Source: a virus
Lineage: Duplodnaviria; Heunggongvirae; Uroviricota; Caudoviricetes
IMG/VR virus record: IMGVR_UViG_2609459800_000001
Length of the DNA: 64,000 nucleotides
Strand: one strand, 5' to 3'
Shown piece by piece: positions 11,975-43,983 of the stretch (positions are counted from its first letter, which is position 1; every line of letters begins with the position of its first letter). Made by a program: the position numbers and the translations under genes. Below the pieces are notes generated by a model that was given only the letters and a program-made list of their open reading frames with translations, was not told the origin of the DNA and ran no database searches.

Positions 11975-12720
11975 GCAAGATTGACTATCAGGTACTGCGT
12001 GAGGCGGCAGAACGTGCAATTCCGGCAATGGAACGCCTGTTAATGTTGCCAGTTGATGATGATTTGTTAACTGAACAGGAACTTAAGGATTACGGTGTGG
12101 ATATTGATGCGCTCAACGCCTTCAAATTTCTGACCGGACCAGAAACCGTGCTGGCGCTGCTGGATGAACGGGAAAGAAACCAGCAATACATCAAAAGCCG
12201 TGATCAGGAGAACGAGGATATTGCGCTAACGGTAGGGAAGCTGAGAGTTGAGCTTGAGGAAGTAAAACAACACGCTGAAGAATTATCCGAAACCAAGGCT
12301 GTTCGTAACCAATGGCGGCCAGATATTTGCCCAATAACCGGACGTGCATTTTTCATGTGGATTGAGCATCCAACATTGGGAAATGTGCCGACATATGGTG
12401 GCCCATTAGATAGTTACACCATTCCAACAAAGGACGGTGACGGTGAGTTTTCATGTGAGCGTTACGATCATGATTTTGGCGGTTGGGTAGAAAGCGAATG
12501 TCTTGGGTTATATCTGATTGATGATAGAGAACAATGCAGGGTCTACGAACTGGAGGAGCGCGTTAAGGAACTGGATGCTCGGGAAATATCGCTCCCGGAA
12601 CGTAGCAGCATGCTTCATCGAACAGATTTTCACGATGATTACCAAACGGTAATGGCATACAAAGTTTCTGAAGTCATCGATGCAATCCGCGCTACTGGCA
12701 TTCGCATCAAAGGAGAGTGA
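11971..12720 (+). CDS. Ead/Ea22-like protein
   Basis: GTG 11971 follows AAGGAGG. The central coiled coil and overall pattern resemble lambdoid Ea22-family proteins. Confidence 0.55.
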   Translation: MSKIDYQVLREAAERAIPAMERLLMLPVDDDLLTEQELKDYGVDIDALNAFKFLTGPETVLALLDERERNQQYIKSRDQENEDIALTVGKLRVELEEVKQHAEELSETKAVRNQWRPDICPITGRAFFMWIEHPTLGNVPTYGGPLDSYTIPTKDGDGEFSCERYDHDFGGWVESECLGLYLIDDREQCRVYELEERVKELDAREISLPERSSMLHRTDFHDDYQTVMAYKVSEVIDAIRATGIRIKGE

Positions 12721-12721
12721 T

Positions 12722-13237
12722 ATGGCGTTAACACACCGCGAACTCTGTCAGATTGCGTACAAGTTCCTTAAGCGCAACGGGTTCAAGGTTTGTTTTCATG
12801 ACCGCTTTATAGCTGTAACCAGTACCGGAGAACAGCCAGATGCTATGGGATTCAGAAATTCAGCATCATGCCTGATAGAGGCGAAGTGTTCTCGTGCTGA
12901 CTTGTTAGCAGATAGAAAAAAGCGTTTCCGTAAAAATCCGTCTCTTGGAATGGGCGACTGGCGATTCTTTATTAGTGAGCCGGGAATTATTTCAATTGAG
13001 GATTTACCACCTGGCTGGGGATTACTTCACGTTGTTAACGGAAGAGTACGGAAAGTACATGGATGGCCCAAGGGGAATTGCTGTTGGGGTAACCCTGAAG
13101 ATAAACCTTTTATTGGGAATAAGCAGGTTGAATGCGATTACATGTTATCTGCATTAAGGCGCATGGAGTTGAGAGGGCACCTTAATGAAATATATGACGG
13201 TGTAATTGTTAATAAGAAAGAAGGAAACGCGGCATGA
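12722..13237 (+). CDS. PD-(D/E)xK (MmcB-like) nuclease-fold protein
   Basis: It has the pattern ...QPDAMGF...LIEAKCS (D...E-x-K). The start is an internal ATG of track ORF 12680..13237 after AAAGGAGAG. Confidence 0.5.
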   Translation: MALTHRELCQIAYKFLKRNGFKVCFHDRFIAVTSTGEQPDAMGFRNSASCLIEAKCSRADLLADRKKRFRKNPSLGMGDWRFFISEPGIISIEDLPPGWGLLHVVNGRVRKVHGWPKGNCCWGNPEDKPFIGNKQVECDYMLSALRRMELRGHLNEIYDGVIVNKKEGNAA

Positions 13238-13620
13238 TCACTATTACCAAAGAGCGACTGCTGACAATCAAGCAGTGGCGCGAAACATACGGACCTGGTA
13301 GCAACGTTGTACTGCCAGCAGAAGAAGCGGAAGAACTGGCACGAATTGCTCTGGCATCACTGGAAGCAAAACCAATAGGTGCATTCCACATTGCAGAACA
13401 GCAAGTTGACGGCACAAGTGACCACCTCAAGGATGGAGAATGGCCTATTGATAATGGAATTATTGAGGTCTACGCCACTCCCCCCGTTCCAGTAGTACCG
13501 GAAGAAAAACCAATGCCTAATCCTCTTAGCATGTACGCGGTCGATGCTGTTGCCGCTATTGCAGAGGTGAGAGGCTGGAACGCCTGCCGTGCCGCTATGC
13601 TTCAGGGGAAAGGAGAGTGA
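13234..13620 (+). CDS. Hypothetical protein sharing modules with 13830..15029
   Basis: 128 aa. It shares IALASLEAKP and GWNACRAAMLQ blocks with the downstream DUF551 protein. Confidence 0.55.
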   Translation: MITITKERLLTIKQWRETYGPGSNVVLPAEEAEELARIALASLEAKPIGAFHIAEQQVDGTSDHLKDGEWPIDNGIIEVYATPPVPVVPEEKPMPNPLSMYAVDAVAAIAEVRGWNACRAAMLQGKGE

Positions 13621-13621
13621 T

Positions 13622-13819
13622 ATGGACAAAAACACACCTGCTTACTGGAGTTTATCACTTGATACTGAATGCCCAAAATGCGGCCACAATTTCGATCTGC
13701 TTTGTGATGCTGATTTCTGGGAATTTTCTGGAGCAAAACAGGCATGTGAAGAAATAAAAGGTTACGAAACATGCTGCCCAGAATGTAACCATGAATTTAA
13801 AACAGATTTTGTGTATTGA
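13622..13819 (+). CDS. Small zinc-ribbon protein
   Basis: 65 aa with CPKC...CCPEC. The start is an internal ATG of track ORF 13589..13819. Confidence 0.5.
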   Translation: MDKNTPAYWSLSLDTECPKCGHNFDLLCDADFWEFSGAKQACEEIKGYETCCPECNHEFKTDFVY

Positions 13820-13829
13820 GGCATAACGA

Positions 13830-15029
13830 ATGACCACTTTTACTAAAGAACAATTAATAGAGATAATTAAGCGCAATATAACGGTTATGGATCGTTATCC
13901 TGATTTAGTAACTGCACAAATGGATCTGGAAGTATACAAAATCGCGCTGGCATCACTGGAAGCAGAACCAGTTGCTTATATTTTCAAACATCCGGCCGGG
14001 AAATTATTCTGGGCTTTAACGGATGAAAGCAATAAAGAGCAACCGGACGTTATTCCTGTTTATGCTGACTCACCTGCGCCGGTTGTGCCGGATGAAATAG
14101 ACGTAAACGATGTACCAAGGGCGGTGACATATTTCAAGACACACAGAGATTGTTACGCAGATGGCTGGAACGCCTGCCGCGCCGCCATGCTTCAGTCCGG
14201 AAACTTTCGGGAAAACAAGAATTCGTCAACCAATAATTTTCGGGAAATCGCGGAAACGTCAACCAACTATCCGGTAATTCCTAGTGAGGTGTTGTCCGCA
14301 ATCCTGAAGGTTGCCAAGATTCGTGCCGATTTCGATGATTTTGACGGTGACAGGCGAGGTATCGGTGATTGTCTGGATGAGGCTGAGCAAGAGCTTATCG
14401 TTACCATTAACAAATATGCCAGTCAGTTGGCAGCAGAACCGATAGCGACTAATGACGTTCGAGAGCAAACAGCCGTTCCGCCAGTTCCTGTAATACAGGC
14501 TGATGTCGCGCAGGCAATTGAAAAACTCAAACGGAAATTAGTGGAATGCAATCGCTATAACTACTGTGCAGATGCAGTTAAAGGCGTAGAGGATGCCTGC
14601 CGTGCTGTTAGCTATAGCCAAGCCGACAATCAGCCAGCATCTGGCAACCAGGCTGCCGAATCCAATCGCGATAATGAGTGGACTGGCAATCCTGATATTG
14701 ATAACGCCATCATCATGCTCGACCGCATAGATACGCTGGAAAATTGCGATGATGACCGTATTGAGGCTGTTAAGGCTGTTTTGCGTAGACTGGCTGGCAA
14801 CTATCCGGTAACTCCGGATGGTTGGATAAGCTGTAGTGAGCGAATGCCGGATACCAAAACAGCCGTTCTTGTTGCCGTGGAGTTTGACAGGAAAGGTGAC
14901 TGGCGAATGAAATGGGCGACTTACATCCCGGGGCATCCTGACGCTAATGATGGGTGGATAATTCCTGGTGCGTCGTGGAAACCGTCACACTGGATGCCGC
15001 TACCAGAACCGCCGCAGGAGGCAAAATGA
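13830..15029 (+). CDS. DUF551-domain protein
   Basis: The C-terminus GWISCSERMPD...WMPLPEPP is characteristic of DUF551. The N-terminal modules are duplicated from 13234..13620. Confidence 0.6.
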   Translation: MTTFTKEQLIEIIKRNITVMDRYPDLVTAQMDLEVYKIALASLEAEPVAYIFKHPAGKLFWALTDESNKEQPDVIPVYADSPAPVVPDEIDVNDVPRAVTYFKTHRDCYADGWNACRAAMLQSGNFRENKNSSTNNFREIAETSTNYPVIPSEVLSAILKVAKIRADFDDFDGDRRGIGDCLDEAEQELIVTINKYASQLAAEPIATNDVREQTAVPPVPVIQADVAQAIEKLKRKLVECNRYNYCADAVKGVEDACRAVSYSQADNQPASGNQAAESNRDNEWTGNPDIDNAIIMLDRIDTLENCDDDRIEAVKAVLRRLAGNYPVTPDGWISCSERMPDTKTAVLVAVEFDRKGDWRMKWATYIPGHPDANDGWIIPGASWKPSHWMPLPEPPQEAK

Positions 15030-15286
15030 TGGATGTCAAAGAGAAGATTTTGCAGGTGATGCGTTCCCGTGCAGCCCTGCAAGAGAAAGTTCTCGGCGGG
15101 GAATATCCATTCAGGATGGCAACCTGGAGTCTGCGGTTGGCAATGGAGAAGGAATTTCCTGATGAAGAATGGCGTTCGGCAGATTTGCGCAAAATTCTTA
15201 TGGAGATGGCTAAAGACGGAACAGTATCCAAAGATACCTATGCCAGCCGGATTGGTCAGGCGGTATGGAGACTGGAGGTGAGGTAA
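15026..15286 (+). CDS. Small hypothetical protein
   Basis: 86 aa from ATG 15026, which overlaps the upstream stop. It lies in the same frame as track ORF 14954..15286. Confidence 0.5.
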   Translation: MMDVKEKILQVMRSRAALQEKVLGGEYPFRMATWSLRLAMEKEFPDEEWRSADLRKILMEMAKDGTVSKDTYASRIGQAVWRLEVR

Positions 15287-15369
15287 TGAGCTGGCCTGAA
15301 GCATTCACCACGGTAGGAATCGCAATGGCGGTAGCACTGGTTTTGTATTCAATTTGTCGCTGGGGATAA
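15286..15369 (+). CDS. Possible 27-aa membrane peptide
   Basis: MSWPEAFTTVGIAMAVALVLYSICRWG. The ATG overlaps the upstream stop (TAATG). Confidence 0.35.
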   Translation: MSWPEAFTTVGIAMAVALVLYSICRWG

Positions 15370-15371
15370 CG

Positions 15372-15605
15372 ATGGGAAAAATAACTTTTGTAGTCGAATT
15401 TGAGGATGGCAAAGAGCCACCTGTTAGCGCCAATCTTGATGTTGCTGGTGGCAGGCTTGTTTCGGTTCTATTTGGTGACTACCGAGATGATTTCTTCCAA
15501 CCAGAAGAAGTTGATGTGGTGCGAGAGGCATTAAACGAGTTAAGTGTTGATAACGATGATGCTCATGCGGAAATCATCCAAAAAATGGAACTGCTAACTC
15601 ACTAA
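15372..15605 (+). CDS. Small acidic hypothetical protein
   Basis: 77 aa from an internal ATG of track ORF 15354..15605. Confidence 0.5.
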   Translation: MGKITFVVEFEDGKEPPVSANLDVAGGRLVSVLFGDYRDDFFQPEEVDVVREALNELSVDNDDAHAEIIQKMELLTH

Positions 15606-15653
15606 ATTATCAATTATGGTGCTATCACCTACGACACCGAGAGAAAATTTATA

Positions 15654-15776
15654 ATGTCAAAAGTAAATGTTTTGATTTTTTCAGCAATTGTTGGCTTTGG
15701 TTTTACTGCCGGAGTGCAGATTTATATTACGTGGGGAAAAATCATCAACTACGCATGGAGTTGTTTTATTAAGTGA
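15654..15776 (+). CDS. Possible 40-aa membrane peptide
   Basis: MSKVNVLIFSAIVGFGFTAGVQIYITWGKIINYAWSCFIK has a single predicted transmembrane helix. Confidence 0.35.
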   Translation: MSKVNVLIFSAIVGFGFTAGVQIYITWGKIINYAWSCFIK

Positions 15777-15783
15777 GGTAAGT

Positions 15784-16077
15784 ATGTGGAGAGGTAATAA
15801 TCATGGCAAAAGCCAGATGATACTTACCGAATATAAGCTAGACCACAAAACCAATAAATCACGCTCAGTATATTTGCTCCGGCACAATAGCCGTGTAAGA
15901 AATACCGTGTTGGAACAAAATCTGACAGTTGAAATGGATAATTACGGGGGATTCAAGCCAACAATTTCGCTTGATGATTTTCCTCGTGGTTTAAGCGAAA
16001 GAGAAGCAATGCTGAAATTAGCAGAATGGCTACAAAGATTAAGCATTGCTATTGAAGATAACTGGTCTGAACCTTAA
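15784..16077 (+). CDS. Small hypothetical protein
   Basis: 97 aa from an ATG after GAGGT, within track ORF 15688..16077. Confidence 0.5.
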   Translation: MWRGNNHGKSQMILTEYKLDHKTNKSRSVYLLRHNSRVRNTVLEQNLTVEMDNYGGFKPTISLDDFPRGLSEREAMLKLAEWLQRLSIAIEDNWSEP

Positions 16078-16083
16078 ATTAAT

Positions 16084-16458
16084 ATGATGACACTAAAACA
16101 TTTTCTTGACCGCCCATTATGGGCGGCAGCCGCAGGCTATGACTTTAATTATATGGATTGCATGTCTTATGCTGCCAATGCATACGACCATTCGTTCAGC
16201 CTGCTGTTTAATTCTTTAAGAATATTGCCGGAAACGGAAGTTGGAGAGCTTCATTTATGGATATTGGGCTTTATCGCGGCTGTCGTTGGTATTGCTGTAT
16301 GGCCTTTTATTTTCTGGCTGGTGGCTGTTGTAGTGTGGTTTAAGTGCAAGACATACCGGAGAAAGTATTTCTTAGGTGATGGAATGACTGATATTGCCAA
16401 AATGAACATTGAAAAATGGACTAAGGAATGTGAAAAGAAATGGCGCAAAAAGAAATGA
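16084..16458 (+). CDS. Membrane protein
   Basis: 124 aa with a long hydrophobic stretch (LHLWILGFIAAVVGIAVWPFIFWLVAVVVWF) and a basic C-terminus. Confidence 0.55.
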   Translation: MMTLKHFLDRPLWAAAAGYDFNYMDCMSYAANAYDHSFSLLFNSLRILPETEVGELHLWILGFIAAVVGIAVWPFIFWLVAVVVWFKCKTYRRKYFLGDGMTDIAKMNIEKWTKECEKKWRKKK

Positions 16459-17120
16459 CTACTCTAACGACAGCATACTTACAGCAATTGGTATTTTTTG
16501 CAGGGGAGGCTACTTGTCATCCTGACGCAAACTATTTATTGGAATTTGAGAGGTTAGCGTCACCCGGTATCGTTCTGGAACTGGCCCAACAGGTGCTGAC
16601 ATTGAGACAAAAAGAGCAACTTGGAAGTGATGCTTACAAGTTAGATTTTGAGCAATGGCTTGAACAGCAACGCGGGAAAATAGATGTGGACTGTGGTTGT
16701 GTGTCCACTGAAACATTCATGCACTGGCTGCGGGTAGCTTACGAGGCTGGCAACTATCCGGATATTCCGGATAGTTCGGTGCCAGCGCCAGGAAAGGGAG
16801 TCACCGGTGAACGTATCCGCATTAAGCCGCATGTTTATCGCGAACTGGTTAACCGCCTCCACGATACAGCGATCAAGTGTGCTGGCACCCAGCAATTACG
16901 AGAAAGAATTAGCCGTGTTTTGGGCGACGTTATTACGCCAGATCATCATAAACAAGCCGAGAAAAGTGACCTGGAAAGGTGTCACCTTGAGGCGGCATTA
17001 AACATTAAGCCGGGGCATACGCTTGGCATTATCGATGCTCTGTTGGTTCATAAGATGGCCAGGGCTTTATTGCCGCTGGTGGCTGATAAGCATGAGGCGG
17101 GCCATGCCAACGAAAGCTGA
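16440..17120 (+). CDS. Hypothetical protein
   Basis: 226-aa ORF in a coupled gene string. The start could be 16455. Confidence 0.55.
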   Translation: MAQKEMTTLTTAYLQQLVFFAGEATCHPDANYLLEFERLASPGIVLELAQQVLTLRQKEQLGSDAYKLDFEQWLEQQRGKIDVDCGCVSTETFMHWLRVAYEAGNYPDIPDSSVPAPGKGVTGERIRIKPHVYRELVNRLHDTAIKCAGTQQLRERISRVLGDVITPDHHKQAEKSDLERCHLEAALNIKPGHTLGIIDALLVHKMARALLPLVADKHEAGHANES

Positions 17121-17385
17121 GTTACAGGCGCGCATAGAGATTCTTGAAAAAGAGAATGCGAGTCTAAAAGGAATGCTGGCGCGGGCGGAAAGGGAATTAT
17201 CAGGCAAATTATTGCCAGAAGAACTGCCACCAGCAGATATACCAGATCGAGTGTCCCGGTGGATGAAGTCTTTTGGTTTGCCGTGGGAGGCTTTTTGGTG
17301 CTACGAGCATCGCAGATGGTGTGATGAACTTGATAGCAGTTTTCCCTACTTTGCGGAAGGGAATACTTGCCCTGAGTTGTATTAG
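17104..17385 (+). CDS. Small coiled-coil protein
   Basis: 93 aa from ATG 17104, within track ORF 17023..17385. Its stop lies inside the left inverted repeat of the AT-rich cassette. Confidence 0.5.
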   Translation: MPTKAELQARIEILEKENASLKGMLARAERELSGKLLPEELPPADIPDRVSRWMKSFGLPWEAFWCYEHRRWCDELDSSFPYFAEGNTCPELY

Positions 17386-29837: not shown

Positions 29838-30026
29838 CTTAAGGGTTATTGAATATGATCAATTTACCTGTAAATCCATACAGTTCAATACCTTATCAGG
29901 TCAAATAGTGATCACTTGATCATTTGATCAAGGTTGCGCTACGTAAAATCTGCGAAATGTTGGCAGTGTTAGTGCTCCAGATTTCGCGTAGCGCACTTAG
30001 CACCACCAATCAATCAGAGGTGAAAA

Positions 30027-30248
30027 ATGGGATATTCAGCTGCTAAAGTGTCCACTCATCTTGAGTTTGAGAAAAACCGTGGTTACTGGCGGGCAAAAGG
30101 GTTTGATCGTGATAGTTGCCAACTGTCATTATCGCGCGGTGAAGAGAAAATAGAACGCACGCGCGGTCGCTGGCGTTTCTATGACGAGAACCATAAACAG
30201 GTAAAGGCAGAGCCGATCCTGTACACTTTACTTAAAACCATTATCTGA
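30027..30248 (+). CDS. Possible small ORF between loxP and cre
   Basis: 73-aa ORF with RBS GAGGTG. I do not recall an annotated P1 gene here, so it may be non-coding (the cre promoter region). Confidence 0.3.
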   Translation: MGYSAAKVSTHLEFEKNRGYWRAKGFDRDSCQLSLSRGEEKIERTRGRWRFYDENHKQVKAEPILYTLLKTII

Positions 30249-30255
30249 GTGTTAA

Positions 30256-31287
30256 ATGTCTAATTTACTGACCGTACACCAAAATTTGCCTGCATTACCG
30301 GTCGATGCAACGAGTGATGAGGTTCGCAAGAACCTGATGGACATGTTCAGGGATCGCCAGGCGTTTTCTGAGCATACCTGGAAAATGCTTCTGTCCGTTT
30401 GCCGGTCGTGGGCGGCATGGTGCAAGTTGAATAACCGGAAGTGGTTTCCCGCAGAACCTGAAGATGTTCGCGATTATCTTCTATATCTTCAGGCGCGCGG
30501 TCTGGCAGTGAAAACTATCCAGCAACATTTGGGCCAGCTAAATATGCTTCATCGTCGGTCCGGGCTGCCACGACCAAGTGACAGCAATGCTGTTTCACTG
30601 GTCATGCGACGGATCCGAAAAGAAAACGTTGATGCCGGTGAGCGTGCAAAACAGGCGCTGGCGTTCGAACGCACTGATTTCGACCAGGTTCGTTCACTCA
30701 TGGAAAATAGCGATCGCTGCCAGGATATACGTAATCTGGCATTTCTGGGGATTGCTTATAACACCCTGTTACGTATAGCCGAAATTTCTAGGATCAGAGT
30801 TAAAGATATCTCACGTACTGACGGTGGGAGAATGTTAATCCATATTGGCAGAACGAAAACGCTGGTTAGCACCGCTGGTGTAGAGAAGGCACTTAGTCTG
30901 GGGGTAACTAAACTGGTTGAGCGATGGATTTCTGTCTCTGGTGTGGCTGATGATCCGAATAACTTCTTGTTTTGCCGTGTCAGAAAAAATGGTGTTGCCG
31001 CGCCATCTGCCACCAGCCAGCTATCAACTCGCGCCCTGGAAGGGATTTTTGAAGCAACTCACCGATTGATTTACGGGGCTAAGGATGACTCTGGCCAGAG
31101 GTACCTGGCCTGGTCTGGACACAGTGCCCGTGTCGGAGCCGCGCGAGATATGGCCCGTGCCGGAGTTTCAATACCGGAGATCATGCAAGCTGGTGGCTGG
31201 ACCAACGTAAATATTGTCATGAACTATATCCGTAACCTGGATAGTGAAACAGGGGCAATGGTGCGCCTGCTGGAAGATGGCGATTAG
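30256..31287 (+). CDS. cre: Cre tyrosine recombinase
   Basis: 343 aa. MSNLLTVHQNLPALPVDATSDEVRKNLMDMFRDRQAFSEHTWK... is essentially P1 Cre, with a few substitutions such as AEISRIR and NNFLF. Confidence 0.99.
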   Translation: MSNLLTVHQNLPALPVDATSDEVRKNLMDMFRDRQAFSEHTWKMLLSVCRSWAAWCKLNNRKWFPAEPEDVRDYLLYLQARGLAVKTIQQHLGQLNMLHRRSGLPRPSDSNAVSLVMRRIRKENVDAGERAKQALAFERTDFDQVRSLMENSDRCQDIRNLAFLGIAYNTLLRIAEISRIRVKDISRTDGGRMLIHIGRTKTLVSTAGVEKALSLGVTKLVERWISVSGVADDPNNFLFCRVRKNGVAAPSATSQLSTRALEGIFEATHRLIYGAKDDSGQRYLAWSGHSARVGAARDMARAGVSIPEIMQAGGWTNVNIVMNYIRNLDSETGAMVRLLEDGD

Positions 31288-31304
31288 CCATTAACGCGTA
31301 AATG

Positions 31305-31321
31305 ATTGCTCTAATTCTTTG
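31305..31321 (+). promoter_or_regulatory. C1 operator
   Basis: ATTGCTCTAATTCTTTG has an exact core. Confidence 0.8.
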
Positions 31322-31337
31322 ATATTTATGGTGACAT

Positions 31338-31649
31338 ATGAGAAAGGATTTCAACATCGACGGAAAATATGTAGTGCTGTCTGTGAGCACTAATATTCAG
31401 TCGCCAGCCGTCATTGTCACTGTAAAGCTGAGCGATAGAATGCCTGATATTGACTCAATATCCGTTGCGTTCCCTGTCAGAAGTATGCGTAGTGCTGAAC
31501 ATTTCGTGATGAATGCCACCGAGGAAGAAGCACGGCGCGGTTTTGCTAAAGTAGTGTCTGACTTTGGCGAACTCTTGGATAAGGTTAACAATGTCCTTTC
31601 AATCAGTTCAGCAAGGTCCAAAGCGTTAACAGCTTCCATGATGAAATAA
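31338..31649 (+). CDS. cra: Cre-associated small protein
   Basis: 103-aa ORF directly downstream of cre and its operator. The name is by position. Confidence 0.45.
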   Translation: MRKDFNIDGKYVVLSVSTNIQSPAVIVTVKLSDRMPDIDSISVAFPVRSMRSAEHFVMNATEEEARRGFAKVVSDFGELLDKVNNVLSISSARSKALTASMMK

Positions 31650-31776
31650 AAAAAGCCTGGCAAGGAGCCAGGCTGCACTAAAGACCGGGTTTGTGTTCCG
31701 CATCCAATCAATCAGAAAGGAGTATAGCACATAGATACTAAAGTGAAAAAATGTGACTGAAGATAAACAATATAAC

Positions 31777-31793
31777 ATTGCTCTAATTGATTG
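31777..31793 (+). promoter_or_regulatory. C1 operator overlapping the TTATAAT -10 (former ref promoter)
   Basis: ATTGCTCTAATTGATTG is followed by TTATAAT. Confidence 0.8.
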
Positions 31794-31997
31794 TTATAAT
31801 TGAGCCGTGGCGTTAGTCAACTACGAAGACGTGGCCATTACCTACTTAACCAGTTCCGCCAGGGCAGCAGAGTAGGTTTCATCTCGGATGTACCATGCCT
31901 GCATGTTTTCCAGAGAAGCCCGCGAGGTTCCCGGACAGGACTCTGCCATTGCGATAGATTAAATGCAATAACCTAAAAGCGATAACGTGGTGGAAAA

Positions 31998-32635
31998 ATG
32001 TTCATCAGAGCTTATTTAAGGGCATCAACGGAAGATCAGTTTGCCGATCGGGCAAAAGAGATGCTGGGGCAGTTTGTTCAGGAGCGGGGACATAAAATAG
32101 CCAGTTACTACCGGGAGAACATAAGCGGTACAAAACTCGACCGCCCGGAACTGGGACGCTTACTGATGGACAGCCACCGCAATGATATTTTACTGGTCGA
32201 GCAAATTGACCGCCTGACCCGTCTGAGTAACAGTGACTGGATTACGCTGAAAAAGCAGATAGAACAACACGAACTGCGGATTGTCGCCTGGATGTATCCA
32301 CCTCATGGCAGGCGCTGTCAGATAAAGACCCTTCGCAGGCTGACCCAATCACCCGCGCCGTGATAACCGCCATCAATAACATGCTTATCGACCTGATGGC
32401 CGCGATGTCGCATAAGGACTGGCTGAGCCGTCGCCAACGGCAACAACAGGGAATTGAACGGGCTCATACGCTGGGTAAATACCGGGGATAACAGGCCGAT
32501 CAGGAACGGCATCAGAAAGTCCTGTACTACCGGCAGGTCAAGAAACTAAGTATCCATGAAACGGTAGATGCGACAGGGTACAGTCCTTCACAGATATGCC
32601 GCATTCAAGAGAGCCTGAATCGGAATAAAAAGTAG
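31998..32635 (+). pseudogene. Serine recombinase/resolvase (tnpR-like), disrupted
   Basis: The N-terminus MFIRAYLRASTEDQ... has the catalytic Ser motif. There is a -1 frameshift near 32288 (GTCGCC|CTGGAT) and an in-frame TAA at 32489..32491. The C-terminal HTH can be read through to 32635. Confidence 0.75.
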
Positions 32636-32734
32636 CCCTGGCGTTAATGGATTACCTTTCCAGGCTAAGCTCATTGCTCCTGTCAGATACGCAGCCCTGC
32701 CTGTAATAATACAGACTGGGCAATGTGTTGCCAC

Positions 32735-33148
32735 TCAGGCTGACAACTGTCGGAGGATATCCGCTGTATTATAATGAGCCCGTTTTTCTATATATTTCCC
32801 GTCCTTCAGAGTGATCATAAATATCAGAGAAAAGCGCACTTTCCTGCCGCTGGCAGGATGCCCAAGGAATTCACGGGTCTGCACGCCTTCAAAGATAAGA
32901 TAGCAGGCGACTTTATCGTCTCTGGCAAAGATTTCGTGGATACGCATTGTAAATCCCGGAAAAGCATCCATATGGCCTTTTTCCTGTACGATAAACTGCT
33001 CACTGTTCAGCGGTGTATCCACCTGAGAATAGAATTTAAAATCCGGATGGCAGAGGTTTTTCACCTCATCATATTTATTTTCTTCAATCAGACGATAAAA
33101 CTTTTTAACCGTTTTGATATTTTCTTCAACAGACATATTGCACCTCAT
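32735..33148 (-). CDS. SnoaL-like / ester cyclase family protein
   Basis: 137 aa with the NTF2-like pattern (...KKFYRLIEENKYDEV...DFKFY...HMDAFPGF...). Confidence 0.55.
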   Translation of the reverse strand: MRCNMSVEENIKTVKKFYRLIEENKYDEVKNLCHPDFKFYSQVDTPLNSEQFIVQEKGHMDAFPGFTMRIHEIFARDDKVACYLIFEGVQTREFLGHPASGRKVRFSLIFMITLKDGKYIEKRAHYNTADILRQLSA

Positions 33149-34134
33149 TTTTCAGTTTCTTTACCTGCCGGAATATTGCCTGCCGGCGTTCCGTTAAATG
33201 TTTTTCGCCATTCACTGGGACTGACTCCCATCCGCTGCCGGAATATCTGCCGGAAAGTAATGGTGGACTGAAAGCCTGCCAGTTCGGCAACCCGCTCCAC
33301 TGCAATATCTGTACTTTCCAGCAGTTCCTGACTCCGCCGGAGACGCTCTGTGGTGATCCACTCCCAGACCGTCATTCCTGTGGCCGAATGAAAATGGCGT
33401 GTAAGCGTTCTTCGGCTCATGGAGGCTAAATGGGCCAGAGTGTCAATATCATGTGGTAATCCCAGATTTGCGGACAGGTATTCCAGCAGCTGGTTTATGC
33501 GGTTATCGGACGTACTTTTGGGAATAAGCAGTTGCCGGTACTGTGCCTGTCCGCCTTCCCGGTAAGGAGGAGCAACCATCCGGCGGGCTATTTGATTAGC
33601 CGTATATCTGCCCAGGCGTTGCCGGATCACATGGAGACAACAGTCCAGTGCTGCGGCTGTACCGGCTGAGGTGATAATCCGCTCGTCCTCAACATAAAGC
33701 ACGTTCACGTCCAGATGAACCGCCGGGAAAAGCATCTGGAAATCCCGTTCAGCCTCCCAGTGCGTGGCCGCCCGTTTACCATCCAGCAGACCGGTGTAAG
33801 CCAGAACAAAACTCCCCAGGCACAGGCCCACCACCTGAGCTCCATTTTTCCAGGCTGCAACCAGGGCACTGAGCAGAGTTTCAGAAGGCCTTTCATGGAT
33901 GTGTTTCCAGAAAGGAATAATAACGATATCGGCCTCTGCCAGTGCATCAAGCCCGTATTCTGCCCTCATCGCCGTACCTTCAGCAGACCAGATAAGCCCG
34001 GGCTCTTCCGCACATACCCGGCGGCTGAAGAGAGCCTTCCCTTCCAGTATCTCCCCGAACAGGATTAGTGGAACGGAGACATGAAATGTACTGAACCCTT
34101 CGGTGATCACTATAGCGACAGTGATGGTGGACAT
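33145..34134 (-). CDS. GlxA-family transcriptional regulator (DJ-1/PfpI domain + AraC HTH)
   Basis: 329 aa. The N-terminal DJ-1-like domain has GLCLGSFVLA and the C-terminus has an AraC-type double HTH. Confidence 0.75.
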   Translation of the reverse strand: MSTITVAIVITEGFSTFHVSVPLILFGEILEGKALFSRRVCAEEPGLIWSAEGTAMRAEYGLDALAEADIVIIPFWKHIHERPSETLLSALVAAWKNGAQVVGLCLGSFVLAYTGLLDGKRAATHWEAERDFQMLFPAVHLDVNVLYVEDERIITSAGTAAALDCCLHVIRQRLGRYTANQIARRMVAPPYREGGQAQYRQLLIPKSTSDNRINQLLEYLSANLGLPHDIDTLAHLASMSRRTLTRHFHSATGMTVWEWITTERLRRSQELLESTDIAVERVAELAGFQSTITFRQIFRQRMGVSPSEWRKTFNGTPAGNIPAGKETEK

Positions 34135-34149
34135 GCCATGGCCTCCGGG

Positions 34150-34926
34150 TTAAATCGTAACTGATTCACCATCAGCAGGAACGGCAACTGACGCCTGGAT
34201 CTGGTTATCGCGGGCATATTCCAGCAGTTCCTGACGGGTCAGCAGACAGTGGTTTACGGCCTCCATGTGCGTTGCCACAATCAGTGCCTCTGGTACGATA
34301 CGATGGGCTTTCAGGACATCTTCCCTGCCGAAAATAATGGGGCCGAATCCGAGAACATGCGCCCAGCCCGTATTCATAATAACGACGCCAGGATTGAACC
34401 GACGTAAATTATCCTCTACAGCCTTGATCCAGATGGTATCCCCGACCAGATAGAGCGTTTTTTCGGACGGATGCTGGAAGACCACCCCACAGGCATCCCC
34501 AAGGATTGCTGCGAGTTGCGGGTTAGCATAGGCTTCGTCCGAACCATGCTGACAAACGGTTTTAATAAGTGAAATTTCGCCAAATGTGCTTTTGTCAGAC
34601 AGAATAACAAGGTTGCTGAAGCCCTGGGAACGCAGGATCTTTTCATCATGTTCATTCTGAACATAAATCAGTTTATCTTTCGGGATGTGCGCAACAGCCG
34701 CTTCATCCCAGTGGTCAGGGTGTGTGTGGGTGACAATAATGGCATCCACATCCAGCAGTACATCAAGGTCAAAAGGCAGCTCAGTCATCGGGATGCGGAT
34801 ATCTGACCGGGCCGTTCCTTCGAATCCCGGATAGGCTTCTTTTTTCGCAAGCATCGGATCGACAAGAAATTTTTTACCAGCGTAAGAAATGAGTTGTGTG
34901 GCGTTACGTACCTGGATGATCTTCAT
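34150..34926 (-). CDS. MBL-fold metallo-hydrolase
   Basis: 258 aa with the HxHxDH motif (VTHTHPDHW). Confidence 0.75.
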   Translation of the reverse strand: MKIIQVRNATQLISYAGKKFLVDPMLAKKEAYPGFEGTARSDIRIPMTELPFDLDVLLDVDAIIVTHTHPDHWDEAAVAHIPKDKLIYVQNEHDEKILRSQGFSNLVILSDKSTFGEISLIKTVCQHGSDEAYANPQLAAILGDACGVVFQHPSEKTLYLVGDTIWIKAVEDNLRRFNPGVVIMNTGWAHVLGFGPIIFGREDVLKAHRIVPEALIVATHMEAVNHCLLTRQELLEYARDNQIQASVAVPADGESVTI

Positions 34927-35168
34927 TTTAGCAAGTCCTGTATTGGTTAATAACCATCAGAGCCATATCATGATGGCCTAATGTGATAATTATGATTAAA
35001 TCAGGCCTGCCTGCCACTGAAATAATGCCATATTTGGATGATATCAGGCCATTCTTCTGGCTCTCAGGTTTCAGGAATATGTCTGCTGAAAGCGGGTACA
35101 GATCTGACGCATTGAAGGGAAGTATCGTCCTTTAAGGCTTATTGATGTCAGCCAGTACAAAAAATCAT

Positions 35169-35206
35169 CTTAACGTACAATATCTTCCGTTTCCCAAACG
35201 GAGCCC
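35169..35206. repeat. Tn3-family 38-bp terminal inverted repeat
   Basis: The reverse complement is GGGCTCCGTTTGGGAAACGGAAGATATTGTACGTTAAG (GGG...ACGTTAAG). It matches the inner IRs of the 235-bp elements at ~33/38 positions. Confidence 0.8.
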
Positions 35207-35531
35207 ACCAACGACGGAGGAACGGCGCGTCGCCAATGCTCTTGGCGCTCTCCCCTGCATTGCCTGCTATATGCATGGAGTAATATCTAATGAGGTGTCT
35301 CTGCACCATATCGCCGGTCGTACCGCGCCGGGTTGTCATAAAAAGCAATTGCCACTTTGTAGATGGCACCACCAGCATGCAGCTCCGGCGGAAGTAAGAG
35401 AAAAATACCCATGGCTGGTCCCTGTTCATGCCGATGGTGTGGTTGGAGGCAAGAAAGAATTCACCTTGCTGAACAAGTCAGAGATGGAGTTACTGGCTGA
35501 CGCCTATGAGATGGCAAATATCATGCACTAA
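35207..35531 (+). pseudogene. ref: ref (HNH recombination enhancement endonuclease), 5'-truncated by the Tn3-type element
   Basis: HNH-like CIAC...HHIAGRTAPGCH...CRWHH. The first ~20 codons of the ORF are read out of the transposon IR, and the native promoter/operator is left at 31777. Confidence 0.65.
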
Positions 35532-35538
35532 TAAATAT
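35522..35538 (+). promoter_or_regulatory. Possible degenerate C1 operator
   Basis: CATGCACTAATAAATAT has 4 mismatches. Confidence 0.4.
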
Positions 35539-35568
35539 ATTATTTTTAATGATAAATGATTGACAACT

Positions 35569-35590
35569 GACAAGTGACTTCAGTCAGAAT
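35569..35590 (+). promoter_or_regulatory. Candidate late promoter of mat (GACAAGTGACT-N5-CAGAAT)
   Basis: Shared late-motif architecture upstream of mat. Confidence 0.5.
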
Positions 35591-35719
35591 CATCACACGC
35601 CCGGTACGGATGGATCCCTTTTCAAATATTCCATGGACGGCACAGTCTGAGTACCGGGCGCTACCTTCAGTTGTATTGCTAAGCCGCCGCTGGTGGCTTT
35701 TCTTTTTTGTAGGGGCGCT

Positions 35720-36361
35720 ATGGATAAGAAAATATGCGTTGTTTCAATGAGCGTCGGCAAACCGGCGTCAATGACTGCTGCATGGATCAACAATGAGCTG
35801 ATAATGGCTGAGCGGACCAGCTACCCTGAACGCCGCCGCGATATGGAACTCCAGCTGCTGCGCGAATTGCGAGAAAAAGAGGAAAAGGGTTTTATCGTGC
35901 TGGTGGAAGAGGAAAACAGCTTTATTACCGGTCAAGTTGGCCAGCGTGTAAGGTTGCGTGATCCCTTCATGAACGGCAGACCGGTACTGATTGAAGCAAT
36001 GCAGATTTACAAGGAATTGGAACGCCAGAAAGCGATCAAGTTACCGCGCAAGGAATCCGGCAAATACATCCTTCACCAAAGCATCTTCGATTCCGAACAC
36101 GATAAAAAAGGCGATGAATTTTTCAACATCAACTGGAGCGAAATAACGACAGAGCATGTTCTGACGTTACTATGTTGCTTTGCGACGGAATACAACAACG
36201 TTGCCAGCGCCGACTACATCAGGGCAATGGCTGGAGAAGTTGAAGCCCGCCAGGAACCATCGTTACTAAGTCCACTTATTAACATAATTCTGGGTACCCA
36301 GACACTGGAACAAAAAAAAGTGCCGAAAGGGGTATTAACAGGCAAGCATAATTATTTCTAA
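35720..36361 (+). CDS. mat: Particle maturation protein
   Basis: ORF following ref as in P1. The start is chosen at ATG 35720 within track ORF 35693..36361. Confidence 0.6.
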   Translation: MDKKICVVSMSVGKPASMTAAWINNELIMAERTSYPERRRDMELQLLRELREKEEKGFIVLVEEENSFITGQVGQRVRLRDPFMNGRPVLIEAMQIYKELERQKAIKLPRKESGKYILHQSIFDSEHDKKGDEFFNINWSEITTEHVLTLLCCFATEYNNVASADYIRAMAGEVEARQEPSLLSPLINIILGTQTLEQKKVPKGVLTGKHNYF

Positions 36362-36559: not shown

Positions 36560-37168
36560 ATGTCTAATACCTCGGCAAATGAAATTGTACCGCACTTACC
36601 GCTAATTTTCGAAAATGAAGCTAATGGGATTCTTCAGGATCTGGCCTATACTCCATCGCTTATGGGGTTGATGATGTTCCCGACAGAAGAGGAGCTGAAA
36701 GCAGCGAGAAGCTACATAATTAACGTTTTTGAAGAGTGTTACCGAGCCGGTCATTTGCGCATTATGGGCTTTACTAATGAAGAAAACTTGTTCGGATACG
36801 CCTTAATCTTCGGACATCCATCGGGAAATTTTCCGTTGTACTGTCATAAAATATATGTATATGAGCAATATCGTGGTAATGGACTTGGAAGTAATATACT
36901 GGCAGAAATACTTGCATTTCCAAATGAGGTCGCTTTGATTTGCCAGTCTGATTTGGTTCCTTTTTATGAATCAGCCGGAATGCACTTTAAAGGAAATTAC
37001 ACCACTCCATCAGTCGCCAATTTCAAAAAAACTCGCGGCATGTATGAGGGGCTTTGTTTGATGAGCACTGAAAAAAATGCAAACTCTAATGGTGTACCTA
37101 TATTCATGCTGAACGATAACGATATTGATAACATCATACAGGCTATCGCATCATCGGCACCACGATAA
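36560..37168 (+). CDS. GNAT-family N-acetyltransferase
   Basis: 202 aa with acetyl-CoA motif A YRGNGLGSNIL. It is preceded by a ~200-bp very AT-rich spacer and a 9-bp-stem hairpin (36527..36551). Confidence 0.7.
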   Translation: MSNTSANEIVPHLPLIFENEANGILQDLAYTPSLMGLMMFPTEEELKAARSYIINVFEECYRAGHLRIMGFTNEENLFGYALIFGHPSGNFPLYCHKIYVYEQYRGNGLGSNILAEILAFPNEVALICQSDLVPFYESAGMHFKGNYTTPSVANFKKTRGMYEGLCLMSTEKNANSNGVPIFMLNDNDIDNIIQAIASSAPR

Positions 37169-40095: not shown

Positions 40096-40330
40096 GGGCT
40101 TCGTTTGGGAAACGTACAATATTGTACGGTTGCGCTATTGCGGTAGGGTGTACTCCAACGCTATACGGTCTTTGGCAGACCTTTAGGGAAATGAGATAAG
40201 CTAAATGCGATAAGAGAAAAGCAATAACTTAAAGGCAATAGCTGATTACGATAAATCAATCAGTTACTTATCAGTATCGATTAAAAAATGCTCCTAACGT
40301 ACAATAATTTCCGTTTCCCAAACCGACCCC
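40096..40330. mobile_element. TIME-like 235-bp non-autonomous Tn3-family element, copy A
   Basis: The 38-bp ends are GGGCTTCGTTTGGGAAACGTACAATATTGTACGGTTGC (outer) and, in inverse orientation, GGGGTCGGTTTGGGAAACGGAAATTATTGTACGTTAGG (inner). There is no coding capacity. Confidence 0.8.
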
Positions 40331-40691: not shown

Positions 40692-42092
40692 ATGTTTGGT
40701 CTTGATGCGTATCACCTGGCAAGGATCCAGTTCGCCTTTACAGTTTCATTTCACATTATCTTTCCGGCGATCACCATTGGGCTTGCCAGTTATCTGGCGG
40801 TGCTGGAAGGCCTTTGGCTAAAAAGCAAAAATCCGGTCTGGCGCTCGTTGTACCACTTCTGGTCAAAAATATTCGCCGTAAATTTCGGCATGGGCGTGGT
40901 TTCCGGTCTGGTGATGGCCTATCAGTTCGGCACCAACTGGAGCGGTTTTTCGGAATTCGCAGGCAGTATTACCGGGCCGTTGCTTACCTATGAGGTGCTG
41001 ACCGCTTTCTTCCTTGAAGCCGGATTCCTCGGGGTGATGCTGTTTGGCTGGAATAAAGTCGGTCCGGGTTTGCATTTCTTCTCAACCTGCATGGTGGCGC
41101 TTGGCACCCTCATTTCCACCTTCTGGATCCTGGCGTCTAACAGTTGGATGCAAACGCCGCAGGGGTTTGAGATCGTCAACGGCCAGGTTGTGCCCGTGGA
41201 CTGGTTCGCCGTTATCTTCAATCCTTCGTTCCCTTATCGGCTGCTGCATATGTCCGTCGCCGCATTTCTCAGTAGCGCGCTGTTTGTCGGCGCTTCGGCA
41301 GCCTGGCATCTGCTGCGCGGCAACGCAACGCCAGCCATTCGCACGATGTTTTCCATGGCGTTGTGGATGACGCTTATTGTCGCGCCGGTGCAGGCGTTAA
41401 TCGGCGATATGCATGGGCTGAACACCCTGAAACATCAGCCAGCCAAAATCGCCGCGATTGAAGGTCACTGGGAAAACCCGCCGGGTGAGCCCACGCCGCT
41501 GCTGCTGTTTGGCTGGCCGGATATGGAACAGGAACGCACCCGCTATGGACTGGCGATCCCGGCGCTGGGAAGCCTGATCCTGACGCACAGTCTGGATAAA
41601 CAGGTTCCGGCGCTAAAAGAATTCGCCAAAGAGGATCGCCCTCACTCGACGATCGTGTTCTGGTCGTTTCGCATCATGGCCGGCCTGGGCATGTTAATGA
41701 TCCTGCTAGGGCTCTGTGCGCTCTGGCTGCGCTACAGGCAGCGCCTCTACACCTCGCGCCCGTTCCTGCGCTTTGCGCTATGGATGGGACCCTCGGGGCT
41801 CATCGCCATTCTCGCGGGCTGGGTGACCACTGAGGTCGGACGCCAGCCGTGGGTGGTGTACGGTTTACAGCGTACTGCCGACGCGGTGTCGGCCCACGGC
41901 GATTTACATATGAGCATTTCGTTGCTCGCTTTCTTTGTTGTCTACAGCTCAGTCTTTGGCGTCGGCTACAGCTATATGATTCGCCTGATCCGCAAAGGCC
42001 CGCTGGAAGATGATTCCGCGCCGCCGCCGGGCACACCCGCCAGGCCGCTTTCCGCCGCCGTCCTCGATTCTCAACATAAGGCACATCGCTAA
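40692..42092 (+). CDS. cydA: Cytochrome bd-type ubiquinol oxidase subunit I (short-Q-loop, CioA-like)
   Basis: 466 aa. ...ARIQFAFTVSFHIIFPAITIGLA...GWVTTEVGRQPWVVYG... are hallmark CydA motifs. It is shorter than E. coli CydA/AppC. Confidence 0.9.
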   Translation: MFGLDAYHLARIQFAFTVSFHIIFPAITIGLASYLAVLEGLWLKSKNPVWRSLYHFWSKIFAVNFGMGVVSGLVMAYQFGTNWSGFSEFAGSITGPLLTYEVLTAFFLEAGFLGVMLFGWNKVGPGLHFFSTCMVALGTLISTFWILASNSWMQTPQGFEIVNGQVVPVDWFAVIFNPSFPYRLLHMSVAAFLSSALFVGASAAWHLLRGNATPAIRTMFSMALWMTLIVAPVQALIGDMHGLNTLKHQPAKIAAIEGHWENPPGEPTPLLLFGWPDMEQERTRYGLAIPALGSLILTHSLDKQVPALKEFAKEDRPHSTIVFWSFRIMAGLGMLMILLGLCALWLRYRQRLYTSRPFLRFALWMGPSGLIAILAGWVTTEVGRQPWVVYGLQRTADAVSAHGDLHMSISLLAFFVVYSSVFGVGYSYMIRLIRKGPLEDDSAPPPGTPARPLSAAVLDSQHKAHR

Positions 42093-43102
42093 TGGGTATT
42101 GATTTATCGGTTATCTGGTTTGTGATCATCGTTTTCGCCACGCTAATGTATATCGTGATGGATGGATTCGATTTGGGTATTGGCATTCTGTTTCCTGTCA
42201 CACGAAACGCAGAGGATCGTGATGTGATGGTCAATAGCGTCGCGCCGGTGTGGGACGGTAATGAAACCTGGCTGGTGCTGGGCGGCGCGGGGCTGTTTGG
42301 GGCTTTCCCGATGGCCTATGCGGTTATTATCGATGCGCTGACCATTCCGTTGACGCTGATGCTGATCGGACTGATTTTTCGCGGCGTGGCCTTCGAGTTT
42401 CGCTTCAAGGCCACGCCAGCCCACCGCCCATTTTGGGACCATGCTTTTCTCGGCGGGTCGATTCTGGCTACCTTCGCCCAAGGGATCGTGGTTGGCGCAG
42501 TGATCAACGGTTTCCCGGTGACCGGTCGCAGCTACAGCGGCGGGCCGTTCGACTGGTTAACCCCCTTCACTCTGTTCTGTGGCGTCGGACTGGTCGTTGC
42601 CTATGCGCTCTTAGGCGCAACCTGGCTGGTGATGAAAAGCGAAAATCCGCTTCAGGATAAAATGCGCAGCGTCGCGAAAAAACTGCTGCTGGCCCTGCTG
42701 TTGTCAATTGCGATAATCAGCCTCTGGACACCGTTAGCGCATCCGGCGATCGCCGACCGTTGGTTTACGCTTCCCAACCTGGGCTATCTGCTGCCGGTTC
42801 CGGTGCTGGTGATCGCGTTCAGCGTCTGGTTATGGCGCACACTGGGTCGTCCGGAAAACCACACGTTTCCGTTTGTGCTGACGCTCGGGCTAATCTTCCT
42901 TGGTTTCAGCGGCCTGGGCATCAGTATCTGGCCGCACATTATTCCGCCTTCGGTTACCCTCTGGCAGGCAGCCGCCCCCGCCCAGAGTCAGGGGTTTATG
43001 CTGGTCGGTGCGCTGCTCATCATTCCGGTGATTTTGGTGTACACCTTCTGGAGTTACTATGTGTTTCGCGGCAAAGTGCAACATGGCGAGGGGTATCACT
43101 GA
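42092..43102 (+). CDS. cydB: Cytochrome bd-type ubiquinol oxidase subunit II (CioB-like)
   Basis: 336 aa with a TAATG overlap with subunit I. It has the MDGFDLGIGIL...WDGNETWLV motif. Confidence 0.9.
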   Translation: MGIDLSVIWFVIIVFATLMYIVMDGFDLGIGILFPVTRNAEDRDVMVNSVAPVWDGNETWLVLGGAGLFGAFPMAYAVIIDALTIPLTLMLIGLIFRGVAFEFRFKATPAHRPFWDHAFLGGSILATFAQGIVVGAVINGFPVTGRSYSGGPFDWLTPFTLFCGVGLVVAYALLGATWLVMKSENPLQDKMRSVAKKLLLALLLSIAIISLWTPLAHPAIADRWFTLPNLGYLLPVPVLVIAFSVWLWRTLGRPENHTFPFVLTLGLIFLGFSGLGISIWPHIIPPSVTLWQAAAPAQSQGFMLVGALLIIPVILVYTFWSYYVFRGKVQHGEGYH

Positions 43103-43748: not shown

Positions 43749-43983
43749 GGGGTCGGTTTGGGAAACGGAAATTATTGTACGTTAGGAGCATTTTTTAATC
43801 GATACTGATAAGTAACTGATTGATTTATCGTAATCAGCTATTGCCTTTAAGTTATTGCTTTTCTCTTATCGCATTTAGCTTATCTCATTTCCCTAAAGGT
43901 CTGCCAAAGACCGTATAGCGTTGGAGTACACCCTACCGCAATAGCGCAACCGTACAATATTGTACGTTTCCCAAACGCAGCCC
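43749..43983. mobile_element. TIME-like 235-bp element, copy B (inverted relative to copy A)
   Basis: By eye, its reverse complement is identical to copy A except for one base (6th position, G vs T). Confidence 0.8.

Follow-up and report, generated by a model that had tools for sequence, protein, structure and literature searches.

An insertion between c8 and mat has been met before in a P1-like phage-plasmid. For pJIE250-3, Venturini et al. (2019) described an insertion at this place that adds five open reading frames (ORFs), among them a putative regulator and a putative resolvase (PMC6906374). The same segment lies within positions 31,794 to 35,206 of the DNA considered here, a 64,000-nucleotide stretch of a virus of the Caudoviricetes (IMG/VR record IMGVR_UViG_2609459800_000001; the whole stretch is referred to below as the window): the records cited for pJIE250-3 as matches above 99.5% (CP032890.1, CP019262.1, and MG825383.1) also match the window. 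Whereas the earlier paper put the insertion at an AT-rich junction near ATTG repeats (P1 1957-1982), with no mention of a Tn3-family relic or of SaxA, in the present comparison the transposition junction falls at P1 2313, the left junction is the end of a deletion at P1 2026, and the parent transposon has been found. The best explanation, to which we assign a probability of about 0.8, is that a Tn3-family transposon of ~6.4 kb inserted into the phage gene ref and then decayed, leaving an immobilised right-hand part together with its cargo.

The parent of the segment has the features of Tn3-like unit transposons: a 38-bp terminal inverted repeat (IR) ending in ...TTGTACGTTAAG, a DDE transposase (TnpA) of ~1,000 residues whose gene runs with its 3' end into the IR, a divergently oriented serine resolvase, and passenger genes where bla stands in Tn3. 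It differs from them in that the IR begins with GGGC rather than GGGG, the terminal repeats extend over ~94 bp, and a sax-like operon takes the place of a resistance gene as the passenger. The copy in the window departs further, since it consists of one IR, 35 codons of tnpA, a dead tnpR, and no res.

The second system that invites comparison is SaxA of Pseudomonas and Pectobacterium. SaxA hydrolyses isothiocyanates to non-toxic amines, and this activity is reported to be conserved across five phylogenetic clusters of SaxA, including those of non-pathogens (PMC7036374). The gene is often found on mobile elements (PMC7036374; PMC12903958), and sax gene sets include a transcriptional regulator (PMC12903958).

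Comparison with phage P1 and with the parent transposon

The window is a P1-like phage-plasmid that is collinear with phage P1 and with many P1-like plasmids, and it encodes Cre at 30256-31287. BLAST against P1 (NC_005856) aligns window 30000-31841 with P1 180-2026 (96.6%) and window 35200-36306 with P1 2306-3413 (96.9%). On inspection of the junction, the first seven bases of the right-hand match (35200-35206) are coincidental, and P1 unambiguously restarts at 35207 (P1 2313). Between the two matches, 3,365 bp of foreign DNA (31842-35206) stands in place of P1 2027-2312, which, according to the P1 annotation, holds the -10 of the P1ref promoter, the ribosome-binding site, and ref codons 1-79.

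On the left, the plus-strand P2ref promoter has been kept from P1 (31772-31800) and comprises the C1 operator Oref (31777-31793) and a -10 (31795-31800). These positions were mapped from the P1 annotation (Oref 1962-1978, P2ref -10 1980-1985) through an ungapped alignment, a promoter-like site was found there in the promoter scan, and they coincide with the operator and -10 assigned to 31777..31800 by a model that had only the letters and the ORFs (hereafter, the sequence-only reading). That reading took everything beyond 31800 to be foreign, which proved wrong: according to BLAST and alignment, P1 homology continues through the ref leader (31801-31841, plus strand; P1 1986-2026), including the -35 of P1ref at 31832-31837, and the foreign DNA starts at 31842-31846, i.e., 41-45 bp further right. 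The left deletion junction is marked by a four-nucleotide filler, CTAC (31842-31845), which, in a three-way comparison, has no match in P1 or in the parent transposon. On the right, the terminus of the IR is joined precisely to the pentamer ACCAA (35207-35211; P1 2313-2317, by alignment with P1), as in a true transposition junction, and comparison with plasmid pHFQ1 revealed that ACCAA is also the 5-bp target duplication around a different Tn3-family transposon. The sequence-only reading was right that ref resumes immediately after the IR without its N-terminus, because 35207 corresponds to P1 2313 and codons 1-79 are absent.

A full-length parent, which that reading had proposed to seek in transposon and plasmid databases, is present on the Escherichia albertii plasmid pEA7_1 (NZ_CP117563.1, about 8810-17351; L090 2863-11404 in the numbering used below). 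It was found with a chimeric query made of the tnpA, resolvase, and SnoaL genes and is the single record holding all parts. The order of the element is IR-tnpA(-)-res-tnpR(+)-SnoaL(-)-GlxA-type regulator(-)-MBL hydrolase(-)-IR (MBL, metallo-beta-lactamase), with both 38-bp IRs, an intact TnpA of 995 residues, a tnpR of 213 codons, and a 167-bp intergenic region. Its regulator gene is split by IS21, without which the element measures ~6.4 kb. The window matches this transposon in three collinear blocks: window 31846-31950 equals L090 3902-4006 (96.2%), window 31950-33637 equals L090 6003-7701 (98.5%), and window 33634-35206 equals L090 9832-11404 (97.2%). The gap between the second and third blocks is just the IS21 insertion in pEA7_1. 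The other gaps define two deletions in the window, one of L090 2863-3901 (1,039 bp, containing the left IR and tnpA codons 661-995) and one of L090 4007-6002 (1,996 bp, containing tnpA codons 1-626 plus 119 bp of res). The junction of the internal deletion has 1 bp of microhomology. This deletion, like a 10-bp deletion in tnpR that is specific to the window, had escaped the sequence-only reading.

Anatomy of the relic

Although the window has no functional transposase, as had been stated before, the statement that there is none overlooked an internal fragment of tnpA (31846-31950, minus strand). These first 105 bp of foreign DNA after the filler comprise about 35 codons, corresponding to residues 627-660 of the 995-residue parent TnpA (94% identity in tblastn); the fragment matches NCBIfam transpos_Tn3 at positions 611-644 of 954 as well as Pfam DDE_Tnp_Tn3, and is annotated as a partial pseudogene by RefSeq/PGAP. 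No other segment of tnpA was found in the 64-kb window, so instead of a full-length DDE TnpA of ~1,000 residues there are only residues 627-660 and a tail-like sequence inside the terminal repeat. An overlooked transposase on the left had been named in advance as a finding that would speak against a one-ended remnant; a small piece of one does exist there but is non-functional, and the claim stands in substance.

Of the 167-bp region between tnpA and tnpR (res), the final 48 bp follow at 31950-31997 (plus strand), where the second block abuts the first, and lead into a serine resolvase (tnpR) pseudogene at 31998-32628 (plus strand). Its catalytic domain is still recognisable (Pfam PF00239, residues 5-96), and RefSeq describes the gene as 'frameshifted; internal stop'. 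Lesions were scored against the intact 213-residue allele of the IncF plasmid p89_MLI108-3. A 1-bp deletion lies between 32285 and 32286, which agrees with the frameshift placed at ~32288 in the sequence-only reading, and AAA has become TAA at 32489-32491, the nonsense codon that it placed at 32489. Both lesions also occur in pTET-GZEC065, the other P1-like plasmid examined. The third lesion, the 10-bp deletion, lies between 32607 and 32608 and is found in this window alone among the aligned sequences. Thus, where a mobile element would have an intact, single-frame small serine resolvase and its res site, the relic has a dead tnpR and an intergenic region, presumed to hold the res subsites, from which 119 of 167 bp are deleted.

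Relatives of these parts occur elsewhere. In Klebsiella pneumoniae pVIR3594, one element matches the tnpA fragment, the resolvase, and the IR end, and consists of the IR, a tnpA with one internal stop, the intergenic region, and the divergent resolvase. The possibility that the resolvase is an unrelated plasmid resolvase, given that it is found on >1,000 plasmids, was rejected because it is the divergent partner of this tnpA in both pVIR3594 and pEA7_1. Plasmid p89_MLI108-3 is collinear with window 31950-35115 (89.9%), and ahead of its intact resolvase lie the res region and the start (~14 codons) of a divergent tnpA. On this plasmid (about 7560-8924), IS5075 has inserted inside the 38-bp IR, leaving the inner 17 bp on one side and the remainder on the other. 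IS5075 targets the IRs of Tn21-type transposons, which this insertion fits.

The right terminus of the transposon (35113-35206, minus strand) is contiguous with the cargo in pEA7_1. It is a 94-bp imperfect terminal inverted repeat, the outer 38 bp of which (35169-35206, with the outer end at 35206) form the Tn3-type IR, whose boundaries the sequence-only reading had given correctly to the base. The IR is identical at 38/38 positions to the right IR and at 37/38 to the left IR of the pEA7_1 transposon, and the whole of 35113-35206 is 91.5% identical to the inverted left end of that element. A fuzzy search of the whole 64-kb window, which allowed up to 10 mismatches, found no partner IR to the left of the relic, again as reported before; instead of an IR at both ends, the relic has the single copy at 35169-35206. 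The same IR and tnpA tail are present in IMI-2 plasmids and in pVIR3594, and position 35113 was also tried as an extra junction (an inversion or a second transposon copy), with 35113-35168 read as a misoriented tnpA tail that matches the 3' end of tnpA in these plasmids. This was rejected, as the cargo of pEA7_1 runs contiguously into the sequence and the termini are 94-bp inverted repeats. The tnpA-like appearance of the DNA just inside the IR is explained by the fact that the termini of the parent are ~94-bp imperfect inverted repeats.

With a single IR and without tnpA, res, or a resolvase, the relic cannot move by itself; it is non-autonomous and is inherited with the phage-plasmid. It should be noted, however, that one IR of a Tn3-family element can be enough for one-ended transposition when the cognate transposase is provided in trans. 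Hence, the description of the element as fixed holds insofar as it cannot transpose alone, but not in the sense of absolute immobility.

Proposed origin and decay of the insertion

The one-ended Tn3-family remnant recognised in the sequence-only reading thus corresponds to the right-hand part of the pEA7_1 element, with a precise IR-target junction. Its history can be pictured as follows. A Tn3-family unit transposon would have entered ref of an ancestral P1-like phage-plasmid at ACCAA (P1 2313-2317, Ref codons 79-81), i.e., at the boundary between the disordered N-terminal DNA-binding region of Ref and its nuclease core; the left junction of the intact insertion would read P1 ...ACCAA followed directly by GGGCTCCG. 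A deletion with a four-nucleotide filler would have taken the left 1,039 bp (the left IR and tnpA codons 661-995) plus P1 2027-2317, and a second, internal deletion of 1,996 bp would have taken tnpA codons 1-626 and most of the res region (119 of its 167 bp). In tnpR, the frameshift and the nonsense codon, which are lineage-wide, would have arisen, and also the 10-bp deletion, which is confined to the window.

Some observations weigh against this history. No P1-like record with a complete element in ref was found with a chimeric query that joined P1 2100-2317 to the left transposon end and that returned only a different transposon at the site; because no complete insertion was found, the order of insertion followed by deletion is inferred rather than observed. 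Moreover, there is no target duplication around the pEA7_1 copy, which leaves recent mobility of the parent unproven. In IMG/VR, scans for the two junctions brought no further information (0 and 1 contigs).

Tn3-family elements are known for one-ended transposition, which might, in principle, have produced a segment of this shape. The donor would have had the right IR only and would already have lost most of tnpA, the transposase would have acted in trans, and the left junction would be the variable end of the transposed segment. Both the single IR with its precise junction to the target and a left junction that falls at an arbitrary point within tnpA, with a four-nucleotide filler, are what such an event would leave. 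However, a one-ended insertion alone removes no target DNA, yet 286-291 bp of P1 are gone; the internal 1,996-bp deletion has to be a separate event whichever of the two models is adopted; and the tnpA fragment, tnpR, and cargo stand in the order and orientation of the parent, for which deletions in situ are the simpler explanation. One-ended transposition is thus considered unlikely. Hardly any weight can be given to the idea that the segment was gained, not by transposition, but by recombination with an IncF-type plasmid already carrying the resolvase-cargo-IR block: the IncF plasmids p89_MLI108-3 and pCFS3292-2 and a Providencia plasmid do have the same resolvase and/or cargo beside the same IR, but the junction with P1 coincides with the very end of the IR and with a pentamer that is a genuine target of a different Tn3-family element; inside the IR, the 85 bp of the IncF versions are of another sequence, and their MBL and regulator genes are just 81-90% identical, whereas the window follows the pEA7_1 transposon at 97-98.5% through the terminus, and no IncF backbone was found flanking the segment in the window.

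Another transposon at the identical site in ref

Four P1-like plasmids emerged from a search with chimeric junctions; their ref gene reads without interruption as far as ACCAA, where another Tn3-family IR, GGGGTCAGTTTGGATATCGAAAATTATTGTACGTTAAG, takes over. In pHFQ1 (L093 12219-19388), the element is complete (7.17 kb) and has ACCAA on both sides, i.e., a 5-bp duplication. In the tnpA region it shares only 74% identity with the parent of the relic, and its cargo differs (a permease and ArsR). This element, which is found in pHFQ1 and in plasmid C of E. coli S30, has an IR related to that of the relic and occupies the identical pentamer (P1 2313-2317) in the same orientation, with tnpA leftward. 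In contrast to the relic, the pHFQ1 copy is complete, has a target duplication, carries other cargo, and lies in another ref allele; the allele flanking it is P1-like, whereas that of the window differs at 2 of the first 25 bases.

The fact that two distinct elements occur at the same pentamer in the same orientation suggests that ACCAA in ref may be a preferred target rather than a site hit by chance, although two events cannot suffice to prove it and no sequence rule was found. Classically, Tn3 is ascribed a regional preference for AT-rich DNA; a true hot spot in ref would imply target recognition beyond such a regional preference.

Plasmid C of E. coli S30 (NZ_CP010234.1; element from L091 9219) is unusual in that it has the other transposon in an intact 5' part of ref and, in addition, the relic of the window after a duplicated c8-Oref segment (P1 1686-2026). 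Two P1-like lineages may have recombined in it, or the arrangement may be an artefact of assembly where the record begins; a cointegrate is a further conceivable source.

Consequences for ref

The remnant of ref (35207-35531, plus strand) encodes Ref residues 80-186 with 2 substitutions relative to P1 Ref, and RefSeq lists it as 'incomplete; missing N-terminus'. The nuclease core is complete (Pfam RecA_dep_nuc, PF16786, positions 1-102 of 103, E=1.3e-50). By contrast, the N-terminal ~76 residues and the promoter and ribosome-binding site of the gene itself are missing, as P1 2027-2312 is absent. Ref is a RecA-dependent HNH nuclease whose basic N-terminal region of ~76 residues is needed for DNA binding and for efficient cleavage, and the deltaN74 protein is strongly deficient unless it is present at ten-fold concentration (PMC4330346). 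It is reasonable to assume that ref has been inactivated, because the -10 of P1ref, the ribosome-binding site, and the N-terminal DNA-binding segment have all been lost. An ORF that starts at an ATG at 35145 (with AAGG 7 nt upstream) is open through the terminal repeat and the IR into the Ref frame (35145-35531) and would encode a predicted hybrid of 128 residues. In pEA7_1, the parent transposon likewise ends in a frame that is open outwards, and a consensus promoter scan found no promoter for the hybrid ORF in the window. As read from the sequence, the surviving C1-controlled P2ref promoter now faces the dead resolvase gene and is antisense to the cargo operon.

Ref raises the killing of P1 lysogens by ciprofloxacin (PMC4713147). 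Since it thereby sensitises lysogens to the drug, the loss of ref may help the host under such drugs, i.e., it might be of benefit to the host or lower the cost of the plasmid under fluoroquinolones.

The cargo operon

The cargo consists of three co-directional minus-strand genes, all of them intact according to their ORFs and to Pfam and NCBIfam matches, as the sequence-only reading had described. They are preceded by a non-coding leader (34927-35112, minus strand), which aligns contiguously with the parent transposon and in which a consensus scan found promoter-like sites at 35067-35038 and 35017-34989. The first gene (34150-34926) encodes an MBL-fold hydrolase that is homologous to SaxA. 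It matches PDB 6BRM, entitled 'putative metal-dependent isothiocyanate hydrolase SaxA', over the full length (residues 1-256 vs. 1-257, 53% identity, E=1.2e-92), and the motifs HxHxDH, QHGS, GDT.W, and HME..NH are identical in the alignment. Its second relative in the PDB, 3RPC (47%), is described as a 'possible metal-dependent hydrolase'. The second gene (33145-34134) encodes a GlxA/FtrA-type regulator, in which Pfam recognises DJ-1_PfpI (6-171), HTH_18 (233-311), and HTH_AraC (twice) and which RefSeq names 'GlxA family transcriptional regulator'. The last gene (32735-33148) encodes a SnoaL-like protein with the NTF2 fold (Pfam SnoaL, 8.8e-24; distant PDB matches to SnoL and AclR), and the P1-like, IncF, and pEA7_1 copies all encode the same protein, WP_001541954.1.

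The pairing of the hydrolase with the regulator is not restricted to the transposon. Chromosomal relatives that are 52-79% identical to the MBL protein were collected from Enterobacterales, Vibrionales, and others (80 loci), and in 73 of them the regulator gene lies directly downstream of the MBL gene; the pair is therefore an old conserved module. The association with a SnoaL-like gene recurs as well (6 of the 80 loci), with the gene placed between the hydrolase and the regulator and not after them. The P1-type and IncF-type alleles form a mosaic, with 99.5% identity in the SnoaL gene, 89.7% in the regulator, and 81.2% in the hydrolase, and with 85 unrelated bp inside the IR. The ratio of nonsynonymous to synonymous substitution rates (dN/dS) between the P1 and IncF alleles is 0.09 for the hydrolase and 0.10 for the regulator. 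Taken as they stand, these alignments indicate purifying selection together with allele mosaicism, which points to recombination between divergent alleles of the same transposon cargo.

Within this context, detoxification of plant isothiocyanates appears to be the most likely function of the cargo, although with no more than moderate confidence. The sequence-only reading had proposed a small catabolic or detoxification unit of unknown substrate; detoxification is indeed likely, and the 53% identity of the MBL protein to SaxA means that the substrate is no longer wholly obscure. The operon would provide a lysogen with a SaxA-type hydrolase (R-NCS to a non-toxic amine), which the adjacent GlxA-type regulator would probably control, and the SnoaL-like protein might serve as an accessory. 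As in SaxA of Pseudomonas and Pectobacterium, the hydrolase has the MBL fold, equal length, and conserved metal ligands; as in the sax genes, a regulator lies alongside, and the genes are on mobile DNA. The differences are that the regulator is of the DJ-1/AraC (GlxA) type and at most a candidate counterpart of SaxC, that a SnoaL-like gene is attached, that the host is an enteric E. coli and the carrier a phage-plasmid, and that the hydrolase is known here from its sequence. A literature search found no sequence-level information on SaxB, SaxC, or a link with SnoaL.

Several points tell against this assignment. It draws on identity to one solved SaxA and on synteny. The regulator scores 311.7 bits against NCBIfam FtrA (NF006902), below the cutoff of 425, and is thus a member of the family and not FtrA itself, and the promoter of the operon is a consensus match only. 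Among species-representative loci, the best match to the MBL protein is that of Photorhabdus kayaii at 79%, with none above this value, and none exceeds 68% identity to 6BRM; with the closest chromosomal relative just 79% identical, no donor species can be named. It is also conceivable, though clearly less probable than a role in isothiocyanate detoxification, that the MBL enzyme hydrolyses some other small electrophile or ester sensed by the regulator and that it resembles SaxA in family only. An identity of 53% is below the orthologue level, and 3RPC is uncharacterised. Likewise, the hosts are not plant pathogens but E. coli of the poultry and human gut, and no part in isothiocyanate metabolism is known for the SnoaL-like protein. 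Set against this are the full-length alignment with identical metal-binding motifs, the reported conservation of isothiocyanate hydrolase activity over the five divergent SaxA clusters and the occurrence of saxA on mobile elements (PMC7036374), and the presence of a transcriptional regulator in sax sets (PMC12903958).

Distribution and significance

The whole 3.4-kb region is present at >=99% identity in at least 60 plasmids of PLSDB. Their hosts are mostly E. coli, with several E. fergusonii and one Cronobacter, and many come from poultry. The relic is also found in 70 of 5,426 complete E. coli genomes. About 508 PLSDB records have an uninterrupted ref region, and ref has been lost in approximately one-tenth of the P1-like plasmids that carry the region. 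The relic and its cre-c8 flank also occur in records labelled as chromosomes, NZ_CP097001.1 (E. coli NCCP 15734) and CP007393.1 (cited in PMC6906374), which implies either integrated P1-like elements or assemblies in which a plasmid has been merged with the chromosome.

Anatomically, the locus is routine: a Tn3-family transposon has decayed inside a dispensable phage gene, and the segment has already been sequenced often, annotated, and partly described. What is added here is the parent transposon and the exact junctions, which correct the published placement of the insertion, a testable function for the cargo, namely a SaxA-type hydrolase that a transducing phage-plasmid carries in E. coli of the gut, and a candidate hot spot for insertions in ref. 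In the literature search, no paper joined isothiocyanate or saxA with P1-like or phage-plasmid terms. A bolder reading would combine these elements: ACCAA would be a hot spot, specific in site and orientation, that this Tn3-family subgroup targets, and P1-like phage-plasmids would be spreading a functional isothiocyanate-detoxification operon among E. coli of the poultry and human gut under selection by dietary glucosinolates, with the loss of ref removing sensitisation to DNA-damaging antibiotics. As a whole, this combination is speculative and rather improbable.

Other features of the window

To the right of the ref remnant, P1 homology stops close to the end of mat, at window 36306 (P1 3413). 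Past this position, where a GNAT-like ORF lies at 36560-37168, the res/mod (EcoPI) region of P1 was not found; in related plasmids, a YaaC-family gene and other genes occupy the place downstream of 36306.

Further right, the window contains two miniature elements of 235 bp (40096-40330 and 43749-43983), which are identical at 234 of 235 positions and lie in inverted orientation. They are bounded by 38-bp IRs of the Tn3-family type, with 5-8 mismatches relative to the IR of the relic, and flank a pair of ORFs (40692-42092 and 42092-43102) that resembles cytochrome bd oxidase when the translations are judged by eye. The resulting 3.9-kb unit replaces ~3.6 kb of P1 darB, has no target duplication, and looks like a composite of Tn3-derived miniature elements of the TIME/IMU type.

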